Assembly (NCBI GenBank): GCA_963698035.1
Contig: OY969114.1
Span: 240,001-272,000 of the forward strand
Source of the DNA: Candidatus Saccharimonadota bacterium
GTDB taxonomy: Archaea; Micrarchaeota; Micrarchaeia; Micrarchaeales; Micrarchaeaceae
Reading direction: 5' to 3'
DNA: 32,000 nucleotides
Made by a program: the position numbers and the translations under genes
Shown here: positions 6,737 to 31,790 of the stretch, piece by piece
How the letters are laid out: each line of letters opens with the position of its first letter
Numbering within the stretch: position 1 is the first letter of the stretch
Notes under the pieces: model-generated
What the model saw: the letters and a program-made list of their open reading frames with translations, nothing else
What the model was told of the DNA's origin: nothing
The model's database searches: none

Positions 6737-9091
6737 ATGGAGGGGGAAACTGAGCATAGCATGCCCGAAGCAGCCGCCGCGCACCCTGAGGCACCGAGCT
6801 CGGCGTCTCACGCCGCACCCCATACAAAGAGGGACTATCCAAAGGCGGTTGTCGATACATTGAGAGCGAAGGTGAAGAGGAAGCACATCATCGCCGCGGT
6901 AATCTACCTTGCGATAGCACTCATCATATTCTATCCTATAACAGCGAACATGTCTACTGTCGCACCGGGCACCGGAGGGGACCTCTATAGCAACATGTGG
7001 GGAATCTGGTGGGCCTCATATACGCTCTTCCAGACGCACGGCAACCTCTGGTATACATATCTTCTGTTCTGGCCGATAGGCAGCAACATCGCATACTTCA
7101 CCTTCGCGCCGATCGCAGCGGTGATAACGGCACCGTTCCAGGCGATAAGCGTAACCTTCGCATATAACGTCATATTTTTCATGGGGTTCCTGATCTCAGG
7201 CCTCGGCATGTTCATACTTGCAGACTACATAACAAAGAACGCGTATGCCGCATTCTTCGCTGGGATTGTCTTCGCGTATAGCGCCTTCCACGTTGCAACT
7301 GCAATCGGGCATCTTGACTGGATGGTAATCGGATGGGTCCCGCTTGCGCTCTACTTCTTCATAAGGATGGTGAAGGACGAGCACAAGTATCTATACGCGA
7401 TAGGACTCGCAGTCTGCATCGTCTTTGCAACCTTCATGGGAGACGTTGAGCAGGGAATCCTCACGGTCGTGCTGCTCTTCATAGTGTTCTTATGCTACCT
7501 GCTCTACTCGTCGACAAGGCGCTTGATGATGAACAAAAGGTTCTGGTTCGCGCTGCTTCTGTGCGTTGTTGCGACATTCATAATAGGCTCGTGGGGCTTC
7601 ATACCTGTAATCCACGGCATACTCGTGCCGGGGGCCGCGGCGAACGTGAACAGCAGGAACACGCTCTCGAACGACGCAGAGTGGAGCTCTCCGATCCTAT
7701 CGTTCTTCCTCCCGAGCCCGTATAACGGGCTCCTCCACAACCTCTCTCTCAGCTATGCGAGCATCTACTCGGTGGACCCGAACGAGAGGATAGCCTACGT
7801 GGGATACGCGGCGATGATACTGGTCGCCATCGGCATAATAAAAAGCTTCAAGGCTGCACGCCTCTGGATAATACTTGCTCTCTTCTTCGGCTGGATGGTT
7901 CTTGGGCCATACATACAGTTGGGGCAGTACATCAGCTCCGGCATACCGGGAATATACTATGCCTACCACTTCATACCAGGATTCAGCGTCCTCCAAGAGC
8001 CAGACCGTTTCTACGTGGCGTTCAGTATAGCTATTGCGATGCTCGCCGCGATCGGGATGAAGTTTCTCATGGAGAGGCTGGCGCGCATGAACGGGAAGAG
8101 CCTCATACAGTTCGGCGCGGTCGCCGCGTTCAGCGCGGTCTTCGTCCTTGAGAGCGCGGGCATAATGACATACGCATTCGCGCCGATTGTGGCAACATAC
8201 GTTACAATCCCGCCGTTCTACCATCTCCTGGCGAACTACAACGAGAACTTCTCGGTCCTGCAGCTGCCTATATTAATAAACAACAACATCCAATACCCAG
8301 ACCTCGCAGCCGGAGAGGCGTCGTTCTACACGAGTGCATCCCACAAGCCCATAGTCGGCGGTTATGGAGGCAGGATAAACCTGACGCAGGAGCTGGAGCT
8401 CTACGTGATTCCGCTTGCTGTAGCCACATCAAATCTGCAGCAGACCGGCAACTTCAGTTATTCCTCTCCAGTGCTTGAGAACTACACCGCGCAGAGCATC
8501 CTCTCGCTCTACGACTACGGCACGGCGTTTGTGGTGATAAACACGCAGGTGCTCAACCTGAGCGAGATAGATGAGCTCGAGCCATACGTGGCGGGCGCGT
8601 TCGGGAACCCGATCTACAAAGACAACAGCACTATAGCGTTCTCGACGAGCGCGGCGATAAACGCCTCTATATTCAGGAGCTACGTGGCATACCCGTCTGT
8701 GACAGACTGGGAGAACTTCGACAGCTTCATAAATGGCACTGTAACCAGCCTCTGGGCACCTATATCGCCCGGGCTGATATCGGTCTTCGCGCCGTACCAG
8801 AATGCGACAGACCTGCAGTATAAGATTTTCTCGTCAACGCCGTATCTGATAAACACTACTGTGAGCTTCTCTGCGGTTGCGGTCGGAGGCAGCAGCACTC
8901 TCCTTGTGGAGTCGCCCACCTCTTCAACGCAGTATGCGACTCTTGCGACCATGCCGCTGACAGGGACGCTGACAAGGTACTCCTTCAACACATCAATGAT
9001 ATCGGGGCCTTACGGCAACCCGCTGCTCTTCGTCAGCGAGGGGAGCGGCACACCCGGCATACTCAACATAACTTTCAGTGAAAGAAGATGA
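6737..9091 (+). CDS. Large polytopic membrane protein with an extracellular sequon-rich C-terminal domain; possible GT-C-type glycosyltransferase
   Basis: 784 aa. After a charged N-terminus there are more than 10 hydrophobic segments. An acidic first-loop motif (TGGDLYSNMWGIWW) recalls GT-C enzymes. The C-terminal ~330 aa are non-hydrophobic and carry 12 N-x-S/T sequons. No WWDYG (AglB) motif was seen. The function is speculative. Confidence 0.4.
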   Translation: MEGETEHSMPEAAAAHPEAPSSASHAAPHTKRDYPKAVVDTLRAKVKRKHIIAAVIYLAIALIIFYPITANMSTVAPGTGGDLYSNMWGIWWASYTLFQTHGNLWYTYLLFWPIGSNIAYFTFAPIAAVITAPFQAISVTFAYNVIFFMGFLISGLGMFILADYITKNAYAAFFAGIVFAYSAFHVATAIGHLDWMVIGWVPLALYFFIRMVKDEHKYLYAIGLAVCIVFATFMGDVEQGILTVVLLFIVFLCYLLYSSTRRLMMNKRFWFALLLCVVATFIIGSWGFIPVIHGILVPGAAANVNSRNTLSNDAEWSSPILSFFLPSPYNGLLHNLSLSYASIYSVDPNERIAYVGYAAMILVAIGIIKSFKAARLWIILALFFGWMVLGPYIQLGQYISSGIPGIYYAYHFIPGFSVLQEPDRFYVAFSIAIAMLAAIGMKFLMERLARMNGKSLIQFGAVAAFSAVFVLESAGIMTYAFAPIVATYVTIPPFYHLLANYNENFSVLQLPILINNNIQYPDLAAGEASFYTSASHKPIVGGYGGRINLTQELELYVIPLAVATSNLQQTGNFSYSSPVLENYTAQSILSLYDYGTAFVVINTQVLNLSEIDELEPYVAGAFGNPIYKDNSTIAFSTSAAINASIFRSYVAYPSVTDWENFDSFINGTVTSLWAPISPGLISVFAPYQNATDLQYKIFSSTPYLINTTVSFSAVAVGGSSTLLVESPTSSTQYATLATMPLTGTLTRYSFNTSMISGPYGNPLLFVSEGSGTPGILNITFSERR

Positions 9092-10335: not shown

Positions 10336-10345
10336 GGAGAAGAAG
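10336..10345 (-). repeat. 3' half of the 23S pre-rRNA processing stem
   Basis: Forward GGAGAAGAAG at this position is the exact reverse complement of CTTCTTCTCC at 13215-13224. In the minus-strand transcript the two flank the 23S and can pair. Confidence 0.6.
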
Positions 10346-13214
10346 TTCTGCAAATTAGGCTTTAGTAACGGTATGTTCACAGGTCGCTTGAGCTCCCTGT
10401 TTACGCACCCGTCCTATCAAAGTCGTGTAATTGCGACCGCCCTAGTGTCTCGTTTCGGGTATGGCTTCGTCCTTAGATGCTTTCAGGACTTATCCGTTTG
10501 GCGCGTGGCTACCCGGCAATGCATTCACAACCGGTACACTAGAGGCGCCGATCCCCCGTTCCTCTCGTATTAAGGGGATCTTATCCTCTGACACTAACAC
10601 TCCCAGTAGATACTACCGTACTGTCTCGCGACGTACTGAACTCAGCTCATGTACGTTTTTAATGGACGAGCAGTCCAACCCTTGGCGGCTTCTGCACCGC
10701 CAGGATAACCTAAGCCCATATCGATGTATCAAACCGCCGGGTCGATGTGAACTCTCACCGGCGACGAATCGGTTACCTCCAGAGTAACTTGTTTGACAGC
10801 TTGGAGCCCCATTAAAAGAGGCTACCAACGTTCGTTAAGCCCCTGTTTCCAGTCTGCATCCCACGCTTTTCAGGATACAGTCAGCCCTGCATTTGCCTTT
10901 ATGCTTACCGGTGGGTTCCCAACCCACCTAAGCAGAGCATTGGTCACTTTCGTTTCCTTATCGAAAGCAACCGTCCAGTCTAACTATCCACCTGCAGCTG
11001 TCCCCTTCCGGGTTAGCTGCGAAACAGATTAAGAGTGGTGTTACATTGTCGCTCCACGTGGGCCGAAGCCCACGCTTCGACGCTCCCACTTACGCTATGC
11101 ATAATCCATTACACAACAACAACAGGCTATAGTCAAGTTTCATGGAGACTTCGTTTCCCACTGAGAGATCGCGGCATATTCACCGCGCAGTAAGTTCACC
11201 GGATCCGATGTTGGGACAGTGGGACAGTCGTTACGCCCTTCATGCAAGTCACCTATTAAGTGACGAGGTATTACGCTACCTCAAGAGAGTCAGAGTTACT
11301 CCCGCTCTTTGCCAGCGCTTACTCCCCTTGAAACGGGGTTTCACGTACTGGCGGTGAGCAGGCGTCACCCACTGTACTTAGCTTTACGGCTTTGCGGTGA
11401 GTTGTGTTTTTGATAAACAGTCGCTGTCCCCTTGTCAATGATATCTGCATATACTATACGCAGACATGGCTTATCGAAAACTTACGCCACTAATTTGCCG
11501 ATTTCCCTAACCACGGGTTATTCCGTCACACCTTGGCCTTTTCAGCCAGCAGCACTTGTACTGGATCTAGGTACGGACTAGAATGATCGTTGCAGATTCC
11601 CTTTTCACGGGCTCAGGAATTCAGTCCATTAGTTCATTTAGCTGCTTCTCCTCATAACGAGACTCCGCAGCCATTTGCACTGTCTTGCAGGACCTATCCC
11701 CAAGCGTCAGAAATCCACCTTGTGTTGCCACGCCTACGTGCTAGGTGCAGGAATATTAACATGCTTCCCTTTTGCTGCAAGTGTGATTGGCTTGCAGCTT
11801 AGGATCGACTAACTCTCCGCTGACGAGCATTGCGAAGAAAACCTTGTGCTTCCGGTGTATGGGATTCTCACCCATATATGCTGTTACTAATACCAGGATT
11901 TTCACTGCGGCACGGTCCATGCGTCCTTTCGGACGCACTTCTTGCCGTGCAGCACGCCCTCTTACCCAGTCTTCTCGACTCTAGGGTCTCGGTACCTAGT
12001 TTAGCCCCGTATATCTTCGGACAGATGCATCTCAACCGGTACGCTATTACGCGTTTTTTAAAGGATGGCTGCTTCTGAGCCTACCTCCCGAGCTGTCTGT
12101 GACACATGCCGTCCTTTGATACACTTAACTAGGATTTGGGGACCTTAACCTCGGTCACTATCTTTGCAGTCTCGCGATGCTAGCTTACCCAACATCGCCG
12201 ACTCCCGGGGTCTACGCAGCACATGCATTCGGAGTTTGACAAGTAAGTGGAGCCTTTCGACTCCGTGCCTACTAATCGGTAGCTCTACCGCATATGCAAG
12301 CTCGCCCGGAGCTATCCTAAAGATACTTCAGAGGGGACCCGCTATTGCCGTGTTCGAATGGTATATCGCCGCTACCCGCAACTCACCCAACAGGACATGC
12401 CATGACAGGTTGCGGACCTCCACCAGGCGTTAGCCTAGCTTCGTCCTGGTCACGAGTAGTTCACAACGGCTTCGGGTCGTATAAAAGTGACTTTGGCATT
12501 TTCATACCCTGCGCCTCATATGCTTGCGCGCTCTCGCTTTCGCTTCGGCTTTCGCCTCGCCACTCCCATACACTCCCTGGCTCTTGCTTCAAGAAGAATG
12601 ATAAGACATTGTTCCATGCGCTTCGCATGTGTCCTTTCGGCACTTCTGCTTCAGCGCACTTCATTCCTTCCACGCCTTACCTTCGTGTCACCACCTAGTT
12701 TCAGATCTTTTCAATCCCACGCGTGTGGGTTCTTTTCAGCTTTCGCTCACGCTACTTGTTCGCTATCGGTCTGCAGCCAATATTTAGGGTTGGGGTTTAA
12801 TGCCCCCGTATTCGCTCTGCATATTCAAGCCAGAGTTACTCTATCTGCAGTACAACTCCAACGCATTTCGCCTACGAGGCTGTCACTCTCTATGGCCGTT
12901 CTTTCCAGAACGTTCGGCTCGTGCTCTGGATGTAAACACTGCACCACATCTCCCCCCTGTTGCCAAGGAGGGATTCAGGTTGCCCTGTGCGGCTTTCAAT
13001 CGCTTTACTTGCCGCATCGCATATGCTTTCTTTTCCTGCGGGTACTAAGATATTTCAGTTCCCCGCGTATGCTTGCGCTATTGCTAGCGCACAATTAAGA
13101 AATCCCAGGTTCAAAGCCTGACTTGCGGCTACCCTGGGCTTATCGCAGCTTGCCACGTCCTTCGTCGCTGCTGGAGCCAAGCCATCCCCTAGGTGGCTTA
13201 AATTATAATGCAAG
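10346..13214 (-). rRNA. rrl: 23S (large subunit) ribosomal RNA; ends approximate
   Basis: The reverse complement contains GGGGAUGGCUUGGCUCCAGCAGCGACGAAGGACGUGGCAAGCUGCGAUAAGCC (5' domain). It also contains GAGCUGAGUUCAGUACGUCGCGAGACAGUACGGU, the sarcin-ricin region ..UACGAGAGGAAC.., and CCUGAAAGCAUCUAAGG near the 3' end. The length of about 2.87 kb is normal, so there is no large insertion. All protein ORFs listed inside it are spurious. Confidence 0.93.
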
Positions 13215-17390: not shown

Positions 17391-17517
17391 CGCCGGGGTA
17401 GGGATTCGAACCCTAAAGCCCTTGCGGGCACCGGTTAGCCCGTTTTCGCATCACAGATCAGCTCTCGATGCCTTAAAAGCTCGAGACCGGCGCGTTACCA
17501 GATTCTGCCACCCCGGC
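17391..17517 (-). tRNA. tRNA-Ser (anticodon CGA) with a ~43-nt intron after position 37
   Basis: The reverse complement folds as follows: acceptor GCCGGGG/CCCCGGC, anticodon stem CCGGU/ACCGG, and loop CUCGAG|A. It has a long variable arm GCCC-GCAA-GGGC, a T arm UAGGG-UUCGAAU-CCCUA, and discriminator G. The insert (about 17437-17479) contains UCGAG, complementary to CUCGA of the anticodon loop. No CCA is encoded. There is one A:C mismatch in the D stem. Confidence 0.85.
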
Positions 17518-24800: not shown

Positions 24801-26303
24801 CTATTCTGCAGCCAATACGCCCCTGATATCAGCCTTTGACTTCCTCCTAGCAATGCTTCCCTTTTCATATTTTATTTCATCTGATTTGGGTGCACCATAA
24901 TACTGTTCGAGTATCTCACTCTGATTTGAATAGGCATTGTCAAACAGCCTATAGCACAGTTCTCCCAGTACGGTTTCGCGTATAATCATCGTTTTGCATG
25001 CCGTTCCTTCGATGCCCTTTAATACCCCCTCGGTTTTCTCCAGCTCATTATCCTTGAGTATCGTGTGCGCAAATACAATGCCGTTCGGAACGAATATATT
25101 TCCTTCAAGGGCAAACCTGTTCGTAGGAAGCTGCTCACCTATAACATATTCGAGCAGTCCTTGTCTACTTTTGTCAAAACGGCTGCTGTCCACAATGCTC
25201 ATAGAATAAAGTTCCAAGTGCCTTATTGGAAGGTTCCCCATAGTCAAGGTCACCCTTTTTATCACCCTCCTCTCTTTCAATGCGTCAAAAGTATAGTTTG
25301 ATCTGCCCCTATCAAAGCCGTATCTTTCATCTATCGCAGTGAACTCCTCTTTGCCGTTATTGCTGAGCTCCTTTAATACGGCATACTCTCTGTTCAGCAG
25401 CCTCGATTGCGACTGCCTCTGATCGCGGCTATCTGCTGACTTTATTTTTTCCTTTAGCACTTCCGCGAAGAATTTATCGCGCAGCGGAACGCAACCGTAT
25501 GCGCAATCGAATATCGAGCTGTACCACTGGGCCTTGTAAGAAGGGAACGCGCTTTTTTGCATCTCATAAATCTTCTTTGTCGCAATACGCGTGTCGTTCT
25601 CCACCACATAGTATATGAAAAGGTCGTAATCGCCGTTCAAGACCATGACCAGCTGCACTCTCGGGTCCTTCCCCAATGCCGCCTTTATTTCCTCAGGGCC
25701 CGGCTTCTTGTCCTCGAATTTTACAAAAATGATAAACTCCGCGTATCCGAGCTTTGTCACATCGATCTCAGCGAAATACCTGATCCCGTACCTTTTCTCC
25801 AGCTTCTCTATATGGTATGCGACCGCCGTAGGCTTCAGGCCAGCAATGCCCCCAATCAACTGCAACGGCGCCCTTGCATTCATGCTCAATGCCATCAGTA
25901 TCTTCTTTTCCGCTTCACTCATCTCGAGCTGGCTTGCCTGGGCAGCCTGGGCCGGAGGCTCGCTCTTTTCCCCTGTCCAGACCACCTTTCCTCCGCGCGC
26001 CTCTATGAGCTCCCTCGCCCTGTCCAAGGCACTCTTCCTGGAGGTTTTCTCCAGAAATGACCCGTCTTCCAATATCCTTCCCAGGTATTCGGATATGGTA
26101 TTCGGTTTCTTCTCCTGCTTGTTCCAGAACGCCTTTACCTTGTATACGTAATATTTTGAGTTGATGATCTTCAAAGAGATGTAGAATGGATATTTCCTCT
26201 TCAAGCTGGCGAATGATTCGGATACCTTCGGCGGAAAGTCCTGCATATATTTATATGCCACTATAACATATTTATACCTTATGTATTCCCCTTTTATAAC
26301 CAT
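24801..26303 (-). CDS. Tandem Lrp/AsnC-like (two HTH + RAM-like modules) regulator with a novel N-terminal domain
   Basis: Module 1 is EKKILMALSMNARAPLQLIGGIAGLKPTAVAYHIEKLEKRYGIRYFAEIDVTKLGY...LNGDYDLFIYYV. Module 2 is REYAVLKELSNNGKEEFTAIDERYGFDRGRSNYTFDALKERRVIKRVTLTMG.... The N-terminal ~110 aa contain SKYYVYKVKAFWNKQEKKPNTISEYLGRI, a beta-hairpin ..YLG motif also seen at the N-termini of some transposases. Confidence 0.7.
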   Translation of the reverse strand: MVIKGEYIRYKYVIVAYKYMQDFPPKVSESFASLKRKYPFYISLKIINSKYYVYKVKAFWNKQEKKPNTISEYLGRILEDGSFLEKTSRKSALDRARELIEARGGKVVWTGEKSEPPAQAAQASQLEMSEAEKKILMALSMNARAPLQLIGGIAGLKPTAVAYHIEKLEKRYGIRYFAEIDVTKLGYAEFIIFVKFEDKKPGPEEIKAALGKDPRVQLVMVLNGDYDLFIYYVVENDTRIATKKIYEMQKSAFPSYKAQWYSSIFDCAYGCVPLRDKFFAEVLKEKIKSADSRDQRQSQSRLLNREYAVLKELSNNGKEEFTAIDERYGFDRGRSNYTFDALKERRVIKRVTLTMGNLPIRHLELYSMSIVDSSRFDKSRQGLLEYVIGEQLPTNRFALEGNIFVPNGIVFAHTILKDNELEKTEGVLKGIEGTACKTMIIRETVLGELCYRLFDNAYSNQSEILEQYYGAPKSDEIKYEKGSIARRKSKADIRGVLAAE

Positions 26304-26921: not shown

Positions 26922-27061
26922 GTGATTCTGATGCAGATATCTCTTAGATTATTTTTAGGCTGGAAGATGCGGAGCGTGTCTTATGATGAGAGGTTCCCTC
27001 TGCTGAGGATATGTTCCGTATTTGATCGATAATAATTATGAAATTATGATTGGTGCTTTGA

Positions 27062-29047
27062 ATGGCAGTAACTATGGACCGGCATAAGGACGCAAGTTGG
27101 GAATTGGGGAAGATGCAGGCAGCTTCGCTAGTACGAACATTAAGCGACAGTCAGAGGATAATGTCACTGGAGGTGATATCTGCTGAACTGAGAAGCCGCA
27201 TATACAGTACCGTGAAAACAGCCGGAAGCGGGCACTTGGGCGGCACGTCTTCCTCAGTAGAACTTATAACTGCTTTGTACTTTGGTGGACTGCTAAGGTA
27301 CGATATAAATAATCCGAGAAATTCAGAAAGAGACAGAGTTCTGGTAAGGGGCCACATGGGTCCGTTGCGGTATAGTCTTTTCTCTTTGCTCGGATGGGTG
27401 GGCGAAGAAGAACTTAAAACGTACAGGCAGCTTGGCTCAAGGCTGCAAGGACACGAGTCGATGGAACTTGTGCCAGGAGTTGATATAACGCCCAGCGGAT
27501 CGTTGGGAATGCTACTGTCTTATGGCGTTGGTTGCGGATACGCAGCGAAGAGTATGGGACGGAACTTCAAGACCTATATATTCTTAGGCGATGGAGAGGA
27601 GGAAGAGGGAAATGTGAGCGAAGCGGCGAGACACGCTGCGAAATTGGGGCTTGACAATATCGTCTGCATTCTGGATAAAAACGAGAAGCAGTTGTCCCGA
27701 CCAATAAAAGATGTAGATTCTACGGATATAAGGAAACTGTGGGAAGCTTATGGATGGGACGTTAGGGAAATCTATAATGGAAATTCAATAAAGGACGTCC
27801 TGGAGGCTTATCAGGGCTTAACAAAAATTAATAGACCTACTTTTGTTATAGCACACACTACAAAAGGCAAGGGCTTGATAGGGGCAGAAGAGAATTGCTG
27901 TGGATACCATACAATAAGCAGTTGTACAAATGCTGCACTGGTAAATTCTATCGAAGAACATAAAAATAAAGTTCTGGAGTCTGGGCTCGATCCAAAGTCT
28001 CTAGCCAGGGAGTTAGCCTCAAAATTCGAATCAAAAGAGGTAGATGCAATAGAGGCGCAGAAGGTGGTTTTCAATCTGCAGAGCTGCAGCAGAAAATCTG
28101 ACATCCCTTCTGCGCTGAAGGACAGCACAGGGCTTCTCGCCATAGAAACATCGAGACACAAACTCAGGCTCTATGCGATGACGGCAGATATGGTGCGCTC
28201 CGACACAATCCGTACATACGGCTTCGTGGAGGGAACGCATTACATAGACGTAGGTTTGCGGGAACAGCACCTCTTTGCCATGGCCCACGGTATTTCGCAT
28301 ACTGATAGGGACTCCCGCATCCTGATACTTCCGGGGGAACAGTTTATGTACCGTGCAGCGGATCAGCTCAATGTCATGGCTCAAGCGGGAACAAAGGCGG
28401 TAATCATCGTGCTCAAGGCAGGATTGGCAGACAATCACAACGGATCGACACACCAATCGGTCGGCCAGCCAGGGATGTTCTTTACGATGCCAGAAATTAC
28501 GGTCCTTGAACCGGCAGACGTGCTGGACTTCTATAACTGCGTGAACTATGCTTTCACCGAATATGACAAACCGATATATCTGAGGCTTACCGACGTCCCG
28601 GTCAGGTCCCTGAGCGCCAAAAACAGGAACGTGCGCTGGTATGTTTTGGATAACCCGCACAGCTCGCCAGATATTGTATTTGTTGCGAGCGGATTCCCGG
28701 TTTCCAATGCGGTAGAGGCTGGGGAGAAACTATACCGAGAACGGGGAATTATATCCAAGGTAATAAACGTCATAAACCAAAAGTCGCTTGACGAGGGATT
28801 CGTCAGGGAACTTGCGGAAGGAAAGCCAGTTCTTACCCTCTACAATGGGCATCCGGATATACTGAGACAAAACGTAGCGAGCACGGTAATGGAATTCGAC
28901 TCAAATAGGCCTTCGACAATCCATGGGCATGGGTTTAGGATAGGGACCTCGGGCAAATTGGATGCCCTGATACGGCATTTTAAGCTGGATGCGGACGGCA
29001 TAGCGGAACTTGCAGCGGATTTGGTATCGCTGAGGAGAGGACAATGA
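27062..29047 (+). CDS. Transketolase-family ThDP-dependent enzyme, N- and C-terminal halves fused (661 aa)
   Basis: Motifs are TAGSGHLGGTSSSVELITALYF, the ThDP motif GDGEEEEGNVSEAARHAAKLGLDNIVCILDKN, and IDVGLREQH in the pyrimidine-binding half. It is divergent from canonical Tkt, for example VRGHMGPLRYS where SKGH..P..Y is usual. Confidence 0.8.
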   Translation: MAVTMDRHKDASWELGKMQAASLVRTLSDSQRIMSLEVISAELRSRIYSTVKTAGSGHLGGTSSSVELITALYFGGLLRYDINNPRNSERDRVLVRGHMGPLRYSLFSLLGWVGEEELKTYRQLGSRLQGHESMELVPGVDITPSGSLGMLLSYGVGCGYAAKSMGRNFKTYIFLGDGEEEEGNVSEAARHAAKLGLDNIVCILDKNEKQLSRPIKDVDSTDIRKLWEAYGWDVREIYNGNSIKDVLEAYQGLTKINRPTFVIAHTTKGKGLIGAEENCCGYHTISSCTNAALVNSIEEHKNKVLESGLDPKSLARELASKFESKEVDAIEAQKVVFNLQSCSRKSDIPSALKDSTGLLAIETSRHKLRLYAMTADMVRSDTIRTYGFVEGTHYIDVGLREQHLFAMAHGISHTDRDSRILILPGEQFMYRAADQLNVMAQAGTKAVIIVLKAGLADNHNGSTHQSVGQPGMFFTMPEITVLEPADVLDFYNCVNYAFTEYDKPIYLRLTDVPVRSLSAKNRNVRWYVLDNPHSSPDIVFVASGFPVSNAVEAGEKLYRERGIISKVINVINQKSLDEGFVRELAEGKPVLTLYNGHPDILRQNVASTVMEFDSNRPSTIHGHGFRIGTSGKLDALIRHFKLDADGIAELAADLVSLRRGQ

Positions 29048-30402
29048 CTAGGGAAAAATCAGTAGAGCGCATCGACGAGGGCGTAGTCGAGAGAATTGAG
29101 GAGAGGTATATCGTAAGCCCAGCGCTACTGGGAAAATTCACTCAGTCCCTGGCAGGGTTTGTGGAAATCCAGAAATACCCCGAAGATTACGTGCAAACCA
29201 TTTATTTCAATAACCCCGAACATGAGCTACCGTTCGAAGTCTCGTTCAGGGCACGAAGAATAGCATCCTCGCACCTGGGCGTAACCCTAACGCCCAATGA
29301 AATTTTTAGAAGTGAGAAGAAATCGGAATATGTGGAAAGCAAGGTGGTGAAGGAGGTGGATCCGCCGATGGAGCTTGGCGCTATTATTTCAAGGTATTCC
29401 CTATTGACAAAAGTCCTTGACAATCCTATTACAATTCCACTTGCCCCCTACGTGGCCACGAGCTACGAAAGAAACAGCTATTGGGTAGGGAGCGTCGCCA
29501 GAATTACGATCGACAGGGATATAAGATATTACCTGATGGATGGATTGACCCCGGTATACATAGCTACAGAGGAGGGCGCAAGAATTGAGATAAAGTATCC
29601 AGAAGAGAAATCAGTTGCGCAGGGGATAAAAAGAGTGAGGGATGCCCTCGCCGGGATAAACGCCGAACCGACCATCCAAAAGAAGGTTGCGTCCTACAAC
29701 ATGCTTTGCGACCATTTGAGAAGCAAATCCAACAGGGCATCGCCAGTCCCCGAAACCGAGATAGAGGCAAAGCTTTCCCTAGATGGCGAGCACCAGTATG
29801 TAATCCATGATATAAAGCGGGACTTCTGCAATGGGCTTGTAAGAGGTTTTGAATTGTTGCCTGAACTGTCTTACTTGTTGGAGCGCGGAAAGCTTTATAG
29901 ATATAAACGCGCAAACGGCGGCGAAAACGTCAGGATAAATGTTGGAGAGGGATTTAGTAGAACAATCACTGTGAAAAACGAGGGGGAGATAGTCAATGAT
30001 GGCATAGAGCTAGGCTGCATCATTAAGAGGCATAAGTCGGAAGAGATTGCAGGCAACTACTTAGAAGGCGAAACCATTGGCACAATAAATAGGAGGCGGA
30101 AATACATTGTAGTGCAAAAAATTGGAACTGGTAATACCTATTCCATACAGGTAGATACGAGCACATGCATGGGGCAGCGGCTCTTCCAATTGGAGATCGA
30201 GGGCCAGCCTTCAAGCCCAGGAGCCGAGAAAGAGGCAATCGAGGACATAACTTTGCTTGCTGCCTTTTTGCTCAAAAAATATCCATTCTTAAGCCCGACG
30301 AAGCTGACGAAGAGAAAATGGCTAAACGATATGATTTTTAATATGCAATCCGAAGGGCTATTGAGGGGGGTAACATGCCAGGGCAAGAACAGCAGACTAT
30401 AG
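29044..30402 (+). CDS. Tandem triphosphate-tunnel-metalloenzyme protein (N-terminal VTC-like domain + C-terminal CYTH domain)
   Basis: The N-terminal half has RIEERYIVSP, YVQTIYFNNPEHELP, VSFRARR, RITIDRDIRYY and RIEIKYPEE. The C-terminal half has ETEIEAKLSL (ExExK), RTITVKNEG, INRRRKYIVV and FQLEIEG. The start overlaps the upstream stop (ATGA) and is preceded by GAGGAGAGG. Confidence 0.6.
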   Translation: MTREKSVERIDEGVVERIEERYIVSPALLGKFTQSLAGFVEIQKYPEDYVQTIYFNNPEHELPFEVSFRARRIASSHLGVTLTPNEIFRSEKKSEYVESKVVKEVDPPMELGAIISRYSLLTKVLDNPITIPLAPYVATSYERNSYWVGSVARITIDRDIRYYLMDGLTPVYIATEEGARIEIKYPEEKSVAQGIKRVRDALAGINAEPTIQKKVASYNMLCDHLRSKSNRASPVPETEIEAKLSLDGEHQYVIHDIKRDFCNGLVRGFELLPELSYLLERGKLYRYKRANGGENVRINVGEGFSRTITVKNEGEIVNDGIELGCIIKRHKSEEIAGNYLEGETIGTINRRRKYIVVQKIGTGNTYSIQVDTSTCMGQRLFQLEIEGQPSSPGAEKEAIEDITLLAAFLLKKYPFLSPTKLTKRKWLNDMIFNMQSEGLLRGVTCQGKNSRL

Positions 30403-31007
30403 AAGTAGGCGGCCGTAAAGTCGATATGGAATACTCTAAGAGAGGTCATAGGATATGTGTGGTATTGGTGCACGGTTTGTACGGCGACATGCGCGGCAGG
30501 TTGATCGAGAAGCTTTTCAACAGATTGAAGGGCGATTATGATGTGCTCAGGTTTAACTTCTCCTCCACTGGAAATCCAAAAAATATGGATACTAAAAAGT
30601 GCGTGACGGAACTGGAAGCTATCGTGGATTTCTTCGGGAACAGGAATATAGTACTCGTTGGCAAGTCTTTTGGCGCCTACATATCCTCAATAGTTGCAGC
30701 AGAGGAAAGATTTGATATTTTGGGCGTGATAGCCTTGGGCTACTATTTGCATGAAGAGGGCAAGCCTTCTGAGGTTTTTGACCAGAGCAGTGCTAGGACG
30801 ATAAAGGTACCTTTTACCATTGTGAAGGGAACCAATGACTTATACTGCAATGAAAATGTACTAAAGAAAGAAATTCCCAATTGCAAATTGCACGTAATCG
30901 GCAATGCAGACCATTCCTTTAAGCCAATTGCAAGCGGCACTAGCAGGGAAGATAATGAAGAAAAAGTCATCTCGCTTGTTGTGAAAGAGCTCAATAGCCT
31001 ACGCTAA
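30375..31007 (+). CDS. Small alpha/beta-fold hydrolase
   Basis: Motifs are VVLVHGLYGD, the nucleophile elbow LVGKSFGAY, and C-terminal GTNDLY...IGNADHSF (Asp/His). GAGGGGGG lies 7-14 nt upstream of ATG 30375. The gene overlaps the upstream gene by 28 nt; the alternative start is ATG 30426. Confidence 0.7.
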   Translation: MPGQEQQTIEVGGRKVDMEYSKRGHRICVVLVHGLYGDMRGRLIEKLFNRLKGDYDVLRFNFSSTGNPKNMDTKKCVTELEAIVDFFGNRNIVLVGKSFGAYISSIVAAEERFDILGVIALGYYLHEEGKPSEVFDQSSARTIKVPFTIVKGTNDLYCNENVLKKEIPNCKLHVIGNADHSFKPIASGTSREDNEEKVISLVVKELNSLR

Positions 31008-31152: not shown

Positions 31153-31224
31153 TGGACTCTGCGGGAATCGAACCCGCAATCTTCCGCTTGCAAAGCGGAC
31201 GCTTTACCATTAAGCCAAGAGCCC
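31153..31224 (-). tRNA. tRNA-Ala (anticodon UGC)
   Basis: The reverse complement is GGGCUCUUGGCUUAAUGGUAAAGCGUCCGCUUUGCAAGCGGAAGAUUGCGGGUUCGAUUCCCGCAGAGUCCA. It has a 7-bp acceptor stem with the G3:U70 Ala identity pair, anticodon loop UUUGCAA, and T arm GCGGG-UUCGAUU-CCCGC. There is no intron and no encoded CCA. Confidence 0.92.
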
Positions 31225-31415: not shown

Positions 31416-31790
31416 TTAGCGCCTTCGTTTTGGCTTGCCCATTTTCCTAGATTTCTTCGCCTTCCTCTTCCTAATTGGTTTATGCCTTCTTGCAGGCTTT
31501 GCCTTCCGCTTTCTAGGCGGACTTCTTGCTGCCCTTTTAGGGGTGCGCGCCTGCGTAGTGGAATACGCAGTCATTCTCTCAACTGTTTGGATGTCCTTTC
31601 CGCGCTCGATGTTTATCTTGCTTAGCATATCGTCGACTACGCTGTCGCTGACCGTCTCCGAGTCCCTTGCAGAATTAGAGAGGAGCGCATTTTCCATGTC
31701 GCTCGTCTTCATCATCTCATTGAGCGACCCGAGCATCTTTATTCTCTCCACTTCGCCTGAGTACTTGCCGTGCCCTCTCTTTTTTGCCAT
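31416..31790 (-). CDS. Hypothetical protein with an extremely basic Lys/Arg/Pro-rich C-terminal tail
   Basis: 124 aa. The N-terminal ~75 aa are acidic/neutral. The last ~45 aa are TPKRAARSPPRKRKAKPARRHKPIRKRKAKKSRKMGKPKRRR. I recognise no family. Confidence 0.55.
   Translation of the reverse strand: MAKKRGHGKYSGEVERIKMLGSLNEMMKTSDMENALLSNSARDSETVSDSVVDDMLSKINIERGKDIQTVERMTAYSTTQARTPKRAARSPPRKRKAKPARRHKPIRKRKAKKSRKMGKPKRRR

Follow-up and report, generated by a model that had tools for sequence, protein, structure and literature searches.

In a 32,000-nucleotide stretch of contig OY969114.1 (assembly GCA_963698035.1, positions 240,001 to 272,000; hereafter the window), three overlapping open reading frames (ORFs) raise the question of why a transketolase-like enzyme that uses thiamine diphosphate (ThDP), a protein with two triphosphate tunnels and a small hydrolase should share an operon. 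We put it at about an even chance that the operon, ORF1-ORF2-ORF3, is composite: a transketolase-like/hydrolase pair (ORF1 and ORF3) into which a tandem-tunnel enzyme (ORF2) acting on inorganic tri- or polyphosphate (polyP) has been inserted. The anatomy, the family membership of the N-half of ORF2, the fold, the synteny and the gene contexts are shown directly; we infer all of these activities, as well as any metabolic link between the two modules, from the lines of evidence that follow.

Anatomy and recurrence of the operon

The three genes occupy positions 27062 to 31007 of the forward strand, and their coordinates, coupled junctions and overlaps are all as the original prediction had them; every peptide motif quoted there was found in the translations. 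ORF1 (27062-29047) encodes a 661-residue fused, three-domain ThDP enzyme that sequence places in a non-canonical clade of the transketolase superfamily, ORF2 (29044-30402) the 452-residue tandem triphosphate-tunnel protein, and ORF3 (30375-31007) a 210-residue serine hydrolase of the Abhydrolase_11 family. The start of ORF2 overlaps the stop of ORF1 in the tetranucleotide ATGA (29044-29047) and is preceded by a purine-rich, Shine-Dalgarno-like motif, GAGGAGAGG (29033-29041). ORF3 opens with an ATG at 30375 and ORF2 ends with a TAG at 30400-30402, giving a 28-nucleotide overlap; a second purine-rich motif, GAGGGGGG (30363-30370), precedes the ORF3 start within the 3' end of ORF2. This upstream start, and with it the overlap, is probably real, because the N-terminal sequence IEVGGRKV.MEYS is kept among ORF3 homologs. 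On reading the sequence ahead of ORF1 we found no Shine-Dalgarno motif, whereas ORF2 and ORF3 carry purine-rich ones. An A/T-rich stretch in the ATAATAATTATGAAATTATGA region (27025-27045, forward strand), 17-37 nucleotides 5' of the ORF1 ATG, may represent an archaeal TATA box and B recognition element; its sequence is not conserved at the related loci L001 and L003. Together, these features are consistent with a leaderless or short-leader first gene on a single archaeal transcript. The 758-nucleotide region 5' of ORF1 yielded neither a conserved small ORF nor an RNA. Beyond it, on the reverse strand (24801-26303), lies a divergent gene for a 500-residue helix-turn-helix (HTH) protein with an Lrp/AsnC-type winged helix, a candidate regulator of the operon; its Pfam HTH_AsnC-type/HTH_24 match is weak and below the cut-off, and its NCBIfam match (LysM/LrpA-like) is sub-threshold.

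The trio is found elsewhere. A search for its co-occurrence, as the original prediction had proposed, returned two further lineages with the same gene order: a Ca. Marsarchaeota metagenome-assembled genome (MAG; loci L001/L021) and a third lineage (L002-L005). A homologous divergent HTH gene accompanies the trio each time (37% identity over 361 residues, E 1e-84, in L003; 25% identity, E 6e-12, in L001). Across the lineages, ORF1 is 67-70% identical, ORF2 51% and ORF3 52-56%. With its gene order kept in both other lineages and protein identities of 51-70%, the trio is unlikely to be a chance arrangement. We expect the operon to be co-transcribed and translationally coupled, with the HTH protein as its putative regulator; all three lineages are of Marsarchaeota type, and judged by its closest homologs the host is probably a relative of the Marsarchaeota. 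In another Marsarchaeota genome the transketolase-like and Abhydrolase_11 genes are adjacent without ORF2, and the nearest relatives of ORF2 outside the operon clade are 37-38% identical. The simplest history is the insertion of a DPANN-type tandem-tunnel gene into a pre-existing ORF1/ORF3 pair in one clade. As a side observation, the ORF2 homolog is intact (436 residues) in three assemblies and split into 366 and 69 residues in the Logan assembly SRR10238610 (L002 1789-3099 compared with L003 10002-11312), which is likely an assembly frameshift and not a pseudogene.

A transketolase-like enzyme and its hydrolase partner

What does ORF1 do? As predicted, it is a single-chain member of the transketolase superfamily: Pfam Transketolase_N (2.7e-34), Transket_pyr (6.7e-18) and Transketolase_C (3.6e-7) all match within one chain, and its best PDB match, human transketolase (9e-43), aligns end to end. 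ORF1 shares with transketolases of the human TKT type the three-domain fold, the length class, the GDG-x27-N metal/ThDP motif, the activating Glu and the ketol-donor His residues. It could be argued from this that ORF1 is simply the organism's pentose-phosphate transketolase and that ORF2 and ORF3 are unrelated genes on a shared transcript, particularly as all the transketolase domains and ThDP/catalytic residues are present, homologs are labelled "transketolase", and RpiB-like genes lie within 8 kb at L003 and L009. A fused transketolase has also been reported in a few DPANN archaea (PMC11237513), and the ORF1 family is probably this protein. We nonetheless consider an ordinary transketolase improbable, given its profile scores, its active site and its gene neighbors. 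ORF1 scores at roughly half the level that the NCBIfam transketolase equivalogs require (NF004559, 247.5 against 488; NF004556, 222 against 575; TIGR00232, 179 against 682).

The active site was compared by aligning 120 ORF1 homologs with human TKT, using the residue list of PMC8016368; the surroundings of Arg318 are less surely aligned than the rest. Human His37, Arg100/101, His110, Lys244, His258 and Glu366 are retained and invariant across the family, and position 428 is His, as in yeast (ORF1 H464). In ORF1 numbering, D177, N207, E401, H58, H98, H131, H283 and H464, which comprise the ThDP/metal motif, the activating Glu and catalytic His residues, are invariant. In contrast, the residues that bind the sugar phosphate and select stereochemistry are replaced family-wide: human Arg318 by L352 (Leu, Gln or Phe in the family), His416 by K452 (mostly Asp in the family), Asp424 (yeast Asp477) by N460 (Asn in 118 of the 120 homologs) and Arg474 by D511 (variable). 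Ser345 is kept in ORF1 only, as S380, with Lys in most members. Newly invariant positions appear instead (K209, R400 and R/K459), and the motif NG(S)THQ (NGSTHQ in ORF1) replaces EDGPTHQ. The retained residues contact the cofactor and the C1-C2 ketol end, whereas those replaced serve the distal sugar phosphate and stereochemical selection. Judged by these residues, ORF1 belongs to the ThDP enzymes of the transketolase superfamily without being a canonical transketolase. Because the cofactor and two-carbon ketol chemistry appears intact but the distal pocket is remodelled, ORF1 would probably cleave or transfer a two-carbon ketol unit of a substrate other than the standard pentose-phosphate sugar phosphates.

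Gene neighborhoods point the same way. The ORF1 family is large (>600 word-filtered matches at 45-52% identity) and ranges over the Patescibacteria, or candidate phyla radiation (CPR), the Woese-, Pace- and Nanoarchaeota, Omnitrophica and Marsarchaeota. We clustered and annotated the neighbors, and wrote out the gene orders, at 86 loci (80 metagenomic loci together with DPANN and Roizmanbacteria loci). Collapsing these at 70% identity and asking for at least 1.5 kb on both sides left 41 independent lineages, in which neighbors were counted within 3.5 kb. No gene of the pentose-phosphate pathway, whether for a transaldolase, an epimerase or an isomerase, was recurrent beside the family at the 86 loci. 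An Abhydrolase_11 gene, in contrast, is present in 51% of the lineages (21 of 41), followed by an orphan family of about 453 residues (unk453; 29%), HDAC-like amidohydrolases (27%), NUDIX or HD phosphohydrolases (24%) and GTP cyclohydrolase I (FolE or FolE2; 12%); short-chain dehydrogenases/reductases (SDR) or RibD_C reductases and pyridoxal phosphate (PLP)-dependent decarboxylases also recur. The context of the family is one of Abhydrolase_11, NUDIX, HDAC-like and GTP cyclohydrolase I genes, unlike that of a canonical transketolase, and CPR genomes are reported to encode a split transketolase of their own, in an operon together with an aldolase (PMC7143001). Examples of gene order are FolE, unk453, transketolase-like, SDR, Abhydrolase_11, NUDIX (L038); NUDIX, transketolase-like, HDAC, unk453, RibD_C, Abhydrolase_11 (L070); and NUDIX, PLP-decarboxylase, transketolase-like, HD (L036).

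The Abhydrolase_11 gene usually lies immediately 3' of the transketolase-like gene with a 4-nucleotide overlap, both in CPR bacteria (Roizmanbacteria, L038) and in archaea. Given this recurrence across independent lineages, ORF1 and ORF3 are an old, widely conserved pair that is found throughout CPR bacteria and DPANN archaea and belongs to an undescribed pathway. The original assignment of ORF3 as a small alpha/beta hydrolase with a GKSFG nucleophile elbow is borne out by its match to Abhydrolase_11 (PF20408; 76.4 bits against a cut-off of 27, 3.1e-21) and by a Ser98 (GKSFG)-Asp155-His180 triad that is invariant in an alignment of five sequences including L001, L003, L006 and L038, one of them from CPR. 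Its PDB matches, to cinnamoyl and chlorogenic acid esterases, are weak. As the habitual partner of ORF1, ORF3 would probably hydrolyze an ester-type product or intermediate.

Two further features of these neighborhoods deserve mention. The unk453 gene always directly adjoins the ORF1-type gene (21 of 86 loci; for example, L038 4648-5982 and L088 4636-5997), often accompanied by FolE/FolE2, a reductase (SDR or RibD_C), Abhydrolase_11 and NUDIX. Nothing in Pfam, NCBIfam or the PDB matches the unk453 protein, and the Cys-x-His and Asp-His motifs that are invariant in it point to an enzymatic role. In addition, in some DPANN-type loci (L036 3595-9346; L048; L051; L056; L081) the transketolase-like gene is paired with a PLP-dependent decarboxylase on its upstream side and with an HD phosphohydrolase on its downstream side; NUDIX genes are also present, and L048 and L081 add a kinase-like 402-residue ORF. 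This version is an alternative form of the transketolase-like cluster. The 444/453-residue protein beside CPR transketolase-like genes was tested as a relative of ORF2 and rejected, and ORFs of 400-425 residues at the ORF2 position in other transketolase-like loci proved to be unrelated (kinase-like, aminoacyl-tRNA synthetase-like, or a major facilitator superfamily transporter).

A tandem triphosphate-tunnel protein

Finding relatives of ORF2 took an exhaustive profile search. A word-indexed search gave only 2-5 relatives, and a single-protein scan of reference genomes gave no matches. The resulting family comprises 177 cluster representatives, 46 of them below 1e-30, nearly all full length at 420-460 residues, and is present in DPANN, CPR and Bathyarchaeia. 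An AlphaFold2 model built from a 61-sequence alignment reached a pLDDT of 91.6 and a pTM of 0.90, compared with a pLDDT of only 46 from a 3-sequence input. In the model, two beta-barrels (approximately residues 13-204 and 238-436) are joined by a helix. A Foldseek search of the PDB with the whole model, in which the aligned half was not reported, returned triphosphate-tunnel proteins as all of its top matches. The best was Vtc4 (3g3t, E 2e-8), with the VTC complex (8i6v_D) also near the top; further matches were YgiF, SaTTM (TM-score 0.70 of target), class IV adenylate cyclases/CyaB (3n10, 2fjt) and AtTTM3. Also among the matches were mouse thiamine triphosphatase (ThTPase; 5a65, E 2.6e-4), Cet1/Pct1 (TM-score 0.22-0.33 for the Cet1 type) and the known look-alike Mediator subunits Med18/20. 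The predicted structure thus agrees with the earlier reading of ORF2 as two triphosphate-tunnel folds in tandem.

That the first half (29044-29736, residues 1-231) is VTC-like also holds up at the sequence level. Pfam VTC (PF09359) matches residues 114-188 of ORF2 at 25.1 bits, against a cut-off of 23, and exceeds the cut-off in 48 of the 61 family members (best 1.4e-13). The family profile in turn finds Vtc2 (3g3o, 2e-10) and Vtc4 (3g3q, 4e-7) in the PDB, with the TIYFNN, LxPYxAxxYxRxxF and RITxD strands aligned. The inward-facing residues of this half are R17-x-E19-x-R21, S67-x-R69-x-R71, E91-x-K93, Y141-x-R143, R153-x-T155-x-D157, E182-x-K184 and K213. As in eukaryotic Vtc4, they would line a closed, Arg/Lys-rich beta-tunnel with one metal-binding Glu and a plug-helix Lys, and the pairing of Vtc4 with Vtc2/3 likewise sets two tunnel domains side by side. 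ORF2 differs from VTC in being a soluble, 452-residue prokaryotic protein: no SPX, membrane or other Pfam domain was found in it, the model consists of two soluble barrels, and the family has no recurrent membrane partner, or Vtc1-like protein, nearby.

The second half (29737-30402, residues 232-452), originally described as a CYTH domain, is a more qualified case. It has the classical acidic-patch signature of a triphosphate tunnel metalloenzyme (TTM), with E239-x-E241-x-K243, R297, K311, R329, R350/R352/K353, D371, E384-x-E386 and K423; E239, E241, K243, E384 and E386 are each conserved at 95-98% among the 61 members and lie on predicted beta-strands. The predicted topology is beta1-alpha-beta(x7-8)-alpha-alpha, and the strand order fits a TTM barrel. 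Much of this is shared with CYTH/TTM hydrolases (Sulfolobus SaTTM, NeuTTM, AtTTM3 and E. coli YgiF): ExExK on the first strand, ExE on the last, a mid-barrel acidic residue, a basic lumen and, in the predicted topology, what would be an eight-stranded tunnel with a plug helix. On the other hand, no Pfam profile, CYTH (PF01928) included, matched any of 20 C-halves at E up to 10, nor was there a PDB match; hhalign comparison with the N-half was not significant, and when two genuine CYTH domains were compared the probabilities were 0.3-5.5%. Genuine CYTH proteins surfaced only below threshold (E 0.6-8) in an unfiltered local hidden Markov model search with the C-half. The predicted fold and the ExExK/ExE motifs therefore suggest a CYTH-like half, while the sequence and profile matches that would make it a member of the family did not appear. 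It differs further from CYTH hydrolases in lacking the RxR motif and in being a barrel of about 200 residues that follows a VTC-type tunnel in one chain, a combination that is not listed among known CYTH fusions (with HD, exopolyphosphatase, nucleotide kinase or CHAD).

The two tunnels appear to differ in chemistry. In hydrolytic TTMs, an acidic patch of four Glu residues serves a second metal (PMC4641920, Martinez et al. 2015), whereas Vtc4 has basic residues at these positions, which guide the growing chain, while keeping the metal-1 Glu and the plug-helix Lys (PMC4641920). Assigned by strand pattern, the N-half has basic residues at two acidic-patch positions, R17 for the first Glu of ExExK and K184 for the second Glu of ExE, and keeps E19 and E91 as acidic ones, so that two of the four "basic exit" positions of Vtc4 are basic. 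On this sequence pattern, the N-half tunnel appears intermediate and VTC-leaning (R17, K184, metal-1 Glu E182, plug-helix Lys K213), and the C-half tunnel is of the hydrolase type, with a full acidic patch. The second tunnel is thus unlike Vtc2/3, which are thought to be inactive: it is fused in cis and keeps the patch. A further position, S212, is conserved in the family and replaced by Gln or Glu in all three operon-linked copies of ORF2, which may mark a functional shift in this clade; the window ORF2 has the additional substitutions I73, S145 and K331.

A signalling or nucleic-acid enzyme could also be built on this fold. Class IV adenylate cyclases and Cet1/Pct1 are among the Foldseek matches, and a two-metal acidic patch like that of the C-half is common to cyclases and RNA triphosphatases. 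However, the Cet1-type matches are weak, no cyclic-nucleotide effector or RNA-processing gene recurs near the family, and the sole coherent genomic context is polyP, making a CyaB-like nucleotide cyclase or RNA 5'-triphosphatase quite improbable.

We give still less credence to a role in thiamine cofactor handling, one of the ideas first put forward for this operon, in which ORF2 would hydrolyze thiamine triphosphate or make or recycle ThDP for ORF1. Mouse ThTPase is among the structural matches and ORF1 and ORF2 are adjacent and translationally coupled, but ThTPase ranked below Vtc4, YgiF, SaTTM and CyaB. Moreover, ThTPases are defined by an aromatic W/YxRxR strand motif, which stacks on the thiazole ring (PMC8233210); neither half of ORF2 has it, the N-half carrying SxRxR with a small residue (S67) and the C-half a single R/K297 without RxR. 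Finally, about 25 loci of the ORF2 family have no ThDP enzyme nearby, and the transketolase-like family has no TTM neighbor in 80 other loci. The informative contexts of the ORF2 family hold polyphosphate genes, and the cofactor idea is very hard to sustain.

Polyphosphate context and a proposed composite operon

Where the genomic context of ORF2 is informative, it suggests polyP. We surveyed 25 reference-genome loci from Parv-, Nano-, Aenigm-, Micr- and Iainarchaeota, Bathyarchaeota, Saccharibacteria, Paceibacterota and Marsarchaeota. Next to the ORF2 homolog of about 11 Bathyarchaeota genomes are a NUDIX gene upstream, convergent genes for CHAD, Ppx/GppA and a His_Phos_1 (SixA/PhoE-like) phosphatase, and a gene for a separate CYTH protein; no PPK1, PPK2 or dTMPK-like gene was found beside it at these loci. 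PPX, SixA/PhoE, CHAD and NUDIX are typical companions of polyP kinases, and Thermoproteota are noted to lack PPK1/2 (PMC12995831); CHAD is a polyP-binding module (PMC6537752). The Bathyarchaeota loci therefore have the same accessory set as prokaryotic operons of PPK1, PPK2 or PPK3, but with the known PPK families missing and the tandem-tunnel gene in their place. TTM-CHAD proteins of the YgiF type and stand-alone CHAD proteins tie TTMs to polyP in the same way. The window operon, in contrast, lacks these accessory genes.

Several details of these loci are worth recording. The cluster is seen in soil Bathyarchaeota at L018, L022, L023, L025, L026, L029, L031, L032 and L035 (for example, L023 7021-13360), with a CYTH protein of 307 residues. 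In a Nanoarchaeota MAG, the ORF2 homolog is directly followed by a gene for a 562-residue protein (L033 9273-10958, forward strand) in which a uridine-kinase/PRK P-loop domain stands between two CYTH domains, the first with HEIERKF; apart from having two tunnels, this protein is similar to plant TTM1/2. Toxin-antitoxin pairs lie a few kilobases away from, or immediately upstream of, ORF2-family genes at two unrelated loci (L001 13962-14488, MazE/ParE; L008 2802-3361, PhdYeFM/ParE), probably by coincidence, although they hint at variable regions.

Taken together, these results support a model of two modules. In the first, ORF1 and its habitual partner ORF3 would carry out the ketol and ester chemistry suggested above. 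The second would be ORF2, a soluble enzyme acting on inorganic tri- or polyphosphate whose gene was inserted into the pair within a single Marsarchaeota clade: its VTC-type tunnel may bind a nucleoside triphosphate and extend or hold a polyP chain, and its acidic-patch tunnel may hydrolyze or trim short-chain polyP or inorganic triphosphate, or make a primer. The trio is not one indivisible unit: the ORF1/Abhydrolase_11 pair is a conserved module, the ORF2 family lives apart from transketolases in about 25 other loci, and homologs of ORF1 and ORF3 adjoin it only in Marsarchaeota-type loci and are absent at three further loci.

The main competing explanation is a single pathway acting on a triphosphorylated organic metabolite, in which ORF2 would, in the Marsarchaeota clade, replace the NUDIX or HD phosphohydrolase that recurs around the ORF1 family and remove or process a tri- or diphosphate on what ORF1 consumes or makes, a later hydrolytic step being left to ORF3. 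Speculatively, GTP cyclohydrolase I could supply such a substrate in the form of 7,8-dihydroneopterin triphosphate, or the substrate could be a related compound. In its favor, NUDIX/HD genes occur in 24% of independent ORF1-family lineages and FolE/FolE2 in 12%, the latter usually with the 453-residue orphan and an SDR or RibD_C gene; ORF2 sits exactly between two conserved partners and overlaps both; ORF2-family genes also adjoin NUDIX genes in Bathyarchaeota and Paceibacterota; and the operon-linked copies share the clade-specific change at S212. Against it, no GTP cyclohydrolase, NUDIX, HD or reductase gene adjoins the trio in the window or in L001 or L003, outside the trio, ORF2-family genes show no association with transketolase-like ones (an ORF2 homolog is present in 0 of the 80 metagenomic loci), and the link to pterins is speculative chemistry. 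We regard a single pathway as unlikely, if the strongest of the alternatives.

The two-module model faces difficulties of its own. No PPX, CHAD or other polyP gene was found within 27 kb upstream in the window, most of the other DPANN and CPR loci of the ORF2 family give an uninformative context, and the Bathyarchaeota loci amount to roughly one independent observation because the genomes are closely related. At the protein level, ORF2 has neither the SPX nor the membrane part of eukaryotic VTC, and the acidic E19 and E91, which are basic in Vtc4, may mean that the N-half tunnel is a hydrolase rather than a polymerase. The replacement of S212, with the changes at I73, S145 and K331, hints at a shifted function. 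In ORF1, K209, R400 and R/K459 could compensate for the lost phosphate-binding residues. The ATGA overlap and tight coupling argue that ORF2 is functionally tied to ORF1 and ORF3, which two independent modules do not explain. The activities proposed for all three families, moreover, are predictions from sequence, structural models and gene context.

The case for an accessory location of the operon is weak. The original prediction placed it in an AT-rich accessory segment, but the GC content is only modestly lower there (0.466 over 24-32 kb, 0.515 over 1-24 kb of the window), and the neighboring genes are housekeeping ones: an eRF1-like protein, PriS, XPF, Cgi121, TruD, PTH2, an ABC transporter and SPFH. 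Given the small GC drop and these neighbors, the accessory segment is not well founded, and calling the operon orphan or accessory overstates the case. The window is archaeal, holding an archaeal 23S rRNA gene and a probably intron-bearing tRNA. The 23S gene is complete (10343-13213, reverse strand) and flanked by a Cgi121-like gene on one side and a cytidine deaminase gene on the other; no 16S or 5S gene was detected across the 32 kb, and the rRNA genes of this genome appear to be unlinked. A tRNA-Ala lies at 31153-31224, and a 127-nucleotide Rfam tRNA match (39 bits; 17391-17517, reverse strand), missed by ARAGORN, probably represents an archaeal tRNA with an intron. Flanked by the genes for the primase PriS and XPF/ERCC4, a 784-residue ORF (6737-9091, forward strand) matches nothing in Pfam. 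A 124-residue ORF (31416-31790, reverse strand), also without a meaningful Pfam match, ends in a tail that is extremely rich in Lys and Arg (PKRAARSPPRKRKAKPARRHKPIRKRKAKKSRKMGKPKRRR) and could encode a nucleic-acid-binding protein.

Finally, our analysis has implications for two areas. The synthesis of polyP in archaea and ultra-small bacteria without PPK1 or PPK2 has been only partly solved, by PPK3 in Sulfolobales, and the literature regards VTC-type polymerases as exclusive to eukaryotes. Tandem VTC-CYTH proteins, prokaryotic VTC enzymes and a cluster of the ORF1 type were nowhere described in the literature that we searched, although absence there is not proof. A bolder possibility, which we consider less likely than not, is that the ORF2 family is an unrecognized prokaryotic VTC-type polyP polymerase whose second tunnel hydrolyzes polyP or generates primers. 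On this view, PPK-less Bathyarchaeia, DPANN and CPR would have their missing polyP synthase in this family, which would also be a candidate prokaryotic relative of the catalytic core of eukaryotic VTC; in Marsarchaeota it would have been recruited into the operon of an uncharacterized ThDP enzyme that metabolic reconstructions miscount as a pentose-phosphate transketolase. A soluble VTC-type/CYTH-type tandem enzyme in kinase-less PPX-CHAD-SixA-NUDIX clusters is a testable polyP candidate that bears on the origin of the eukaryotic VTC core.

The fused "transketolase" of CPR and DPANN genomes is routinely counted as a pentose-phosphate enzyme in genome-based reconstructions. Because the ORF1 family lacks the canonical substrate-recognition residues and belongs to a different conserved gene cluster, such reconstructions may be wrong, and the cluster points to a pathway that awaits description. 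The window operon is the one place that physically couples both uncharacterized families, making it a natural experimental entry point.

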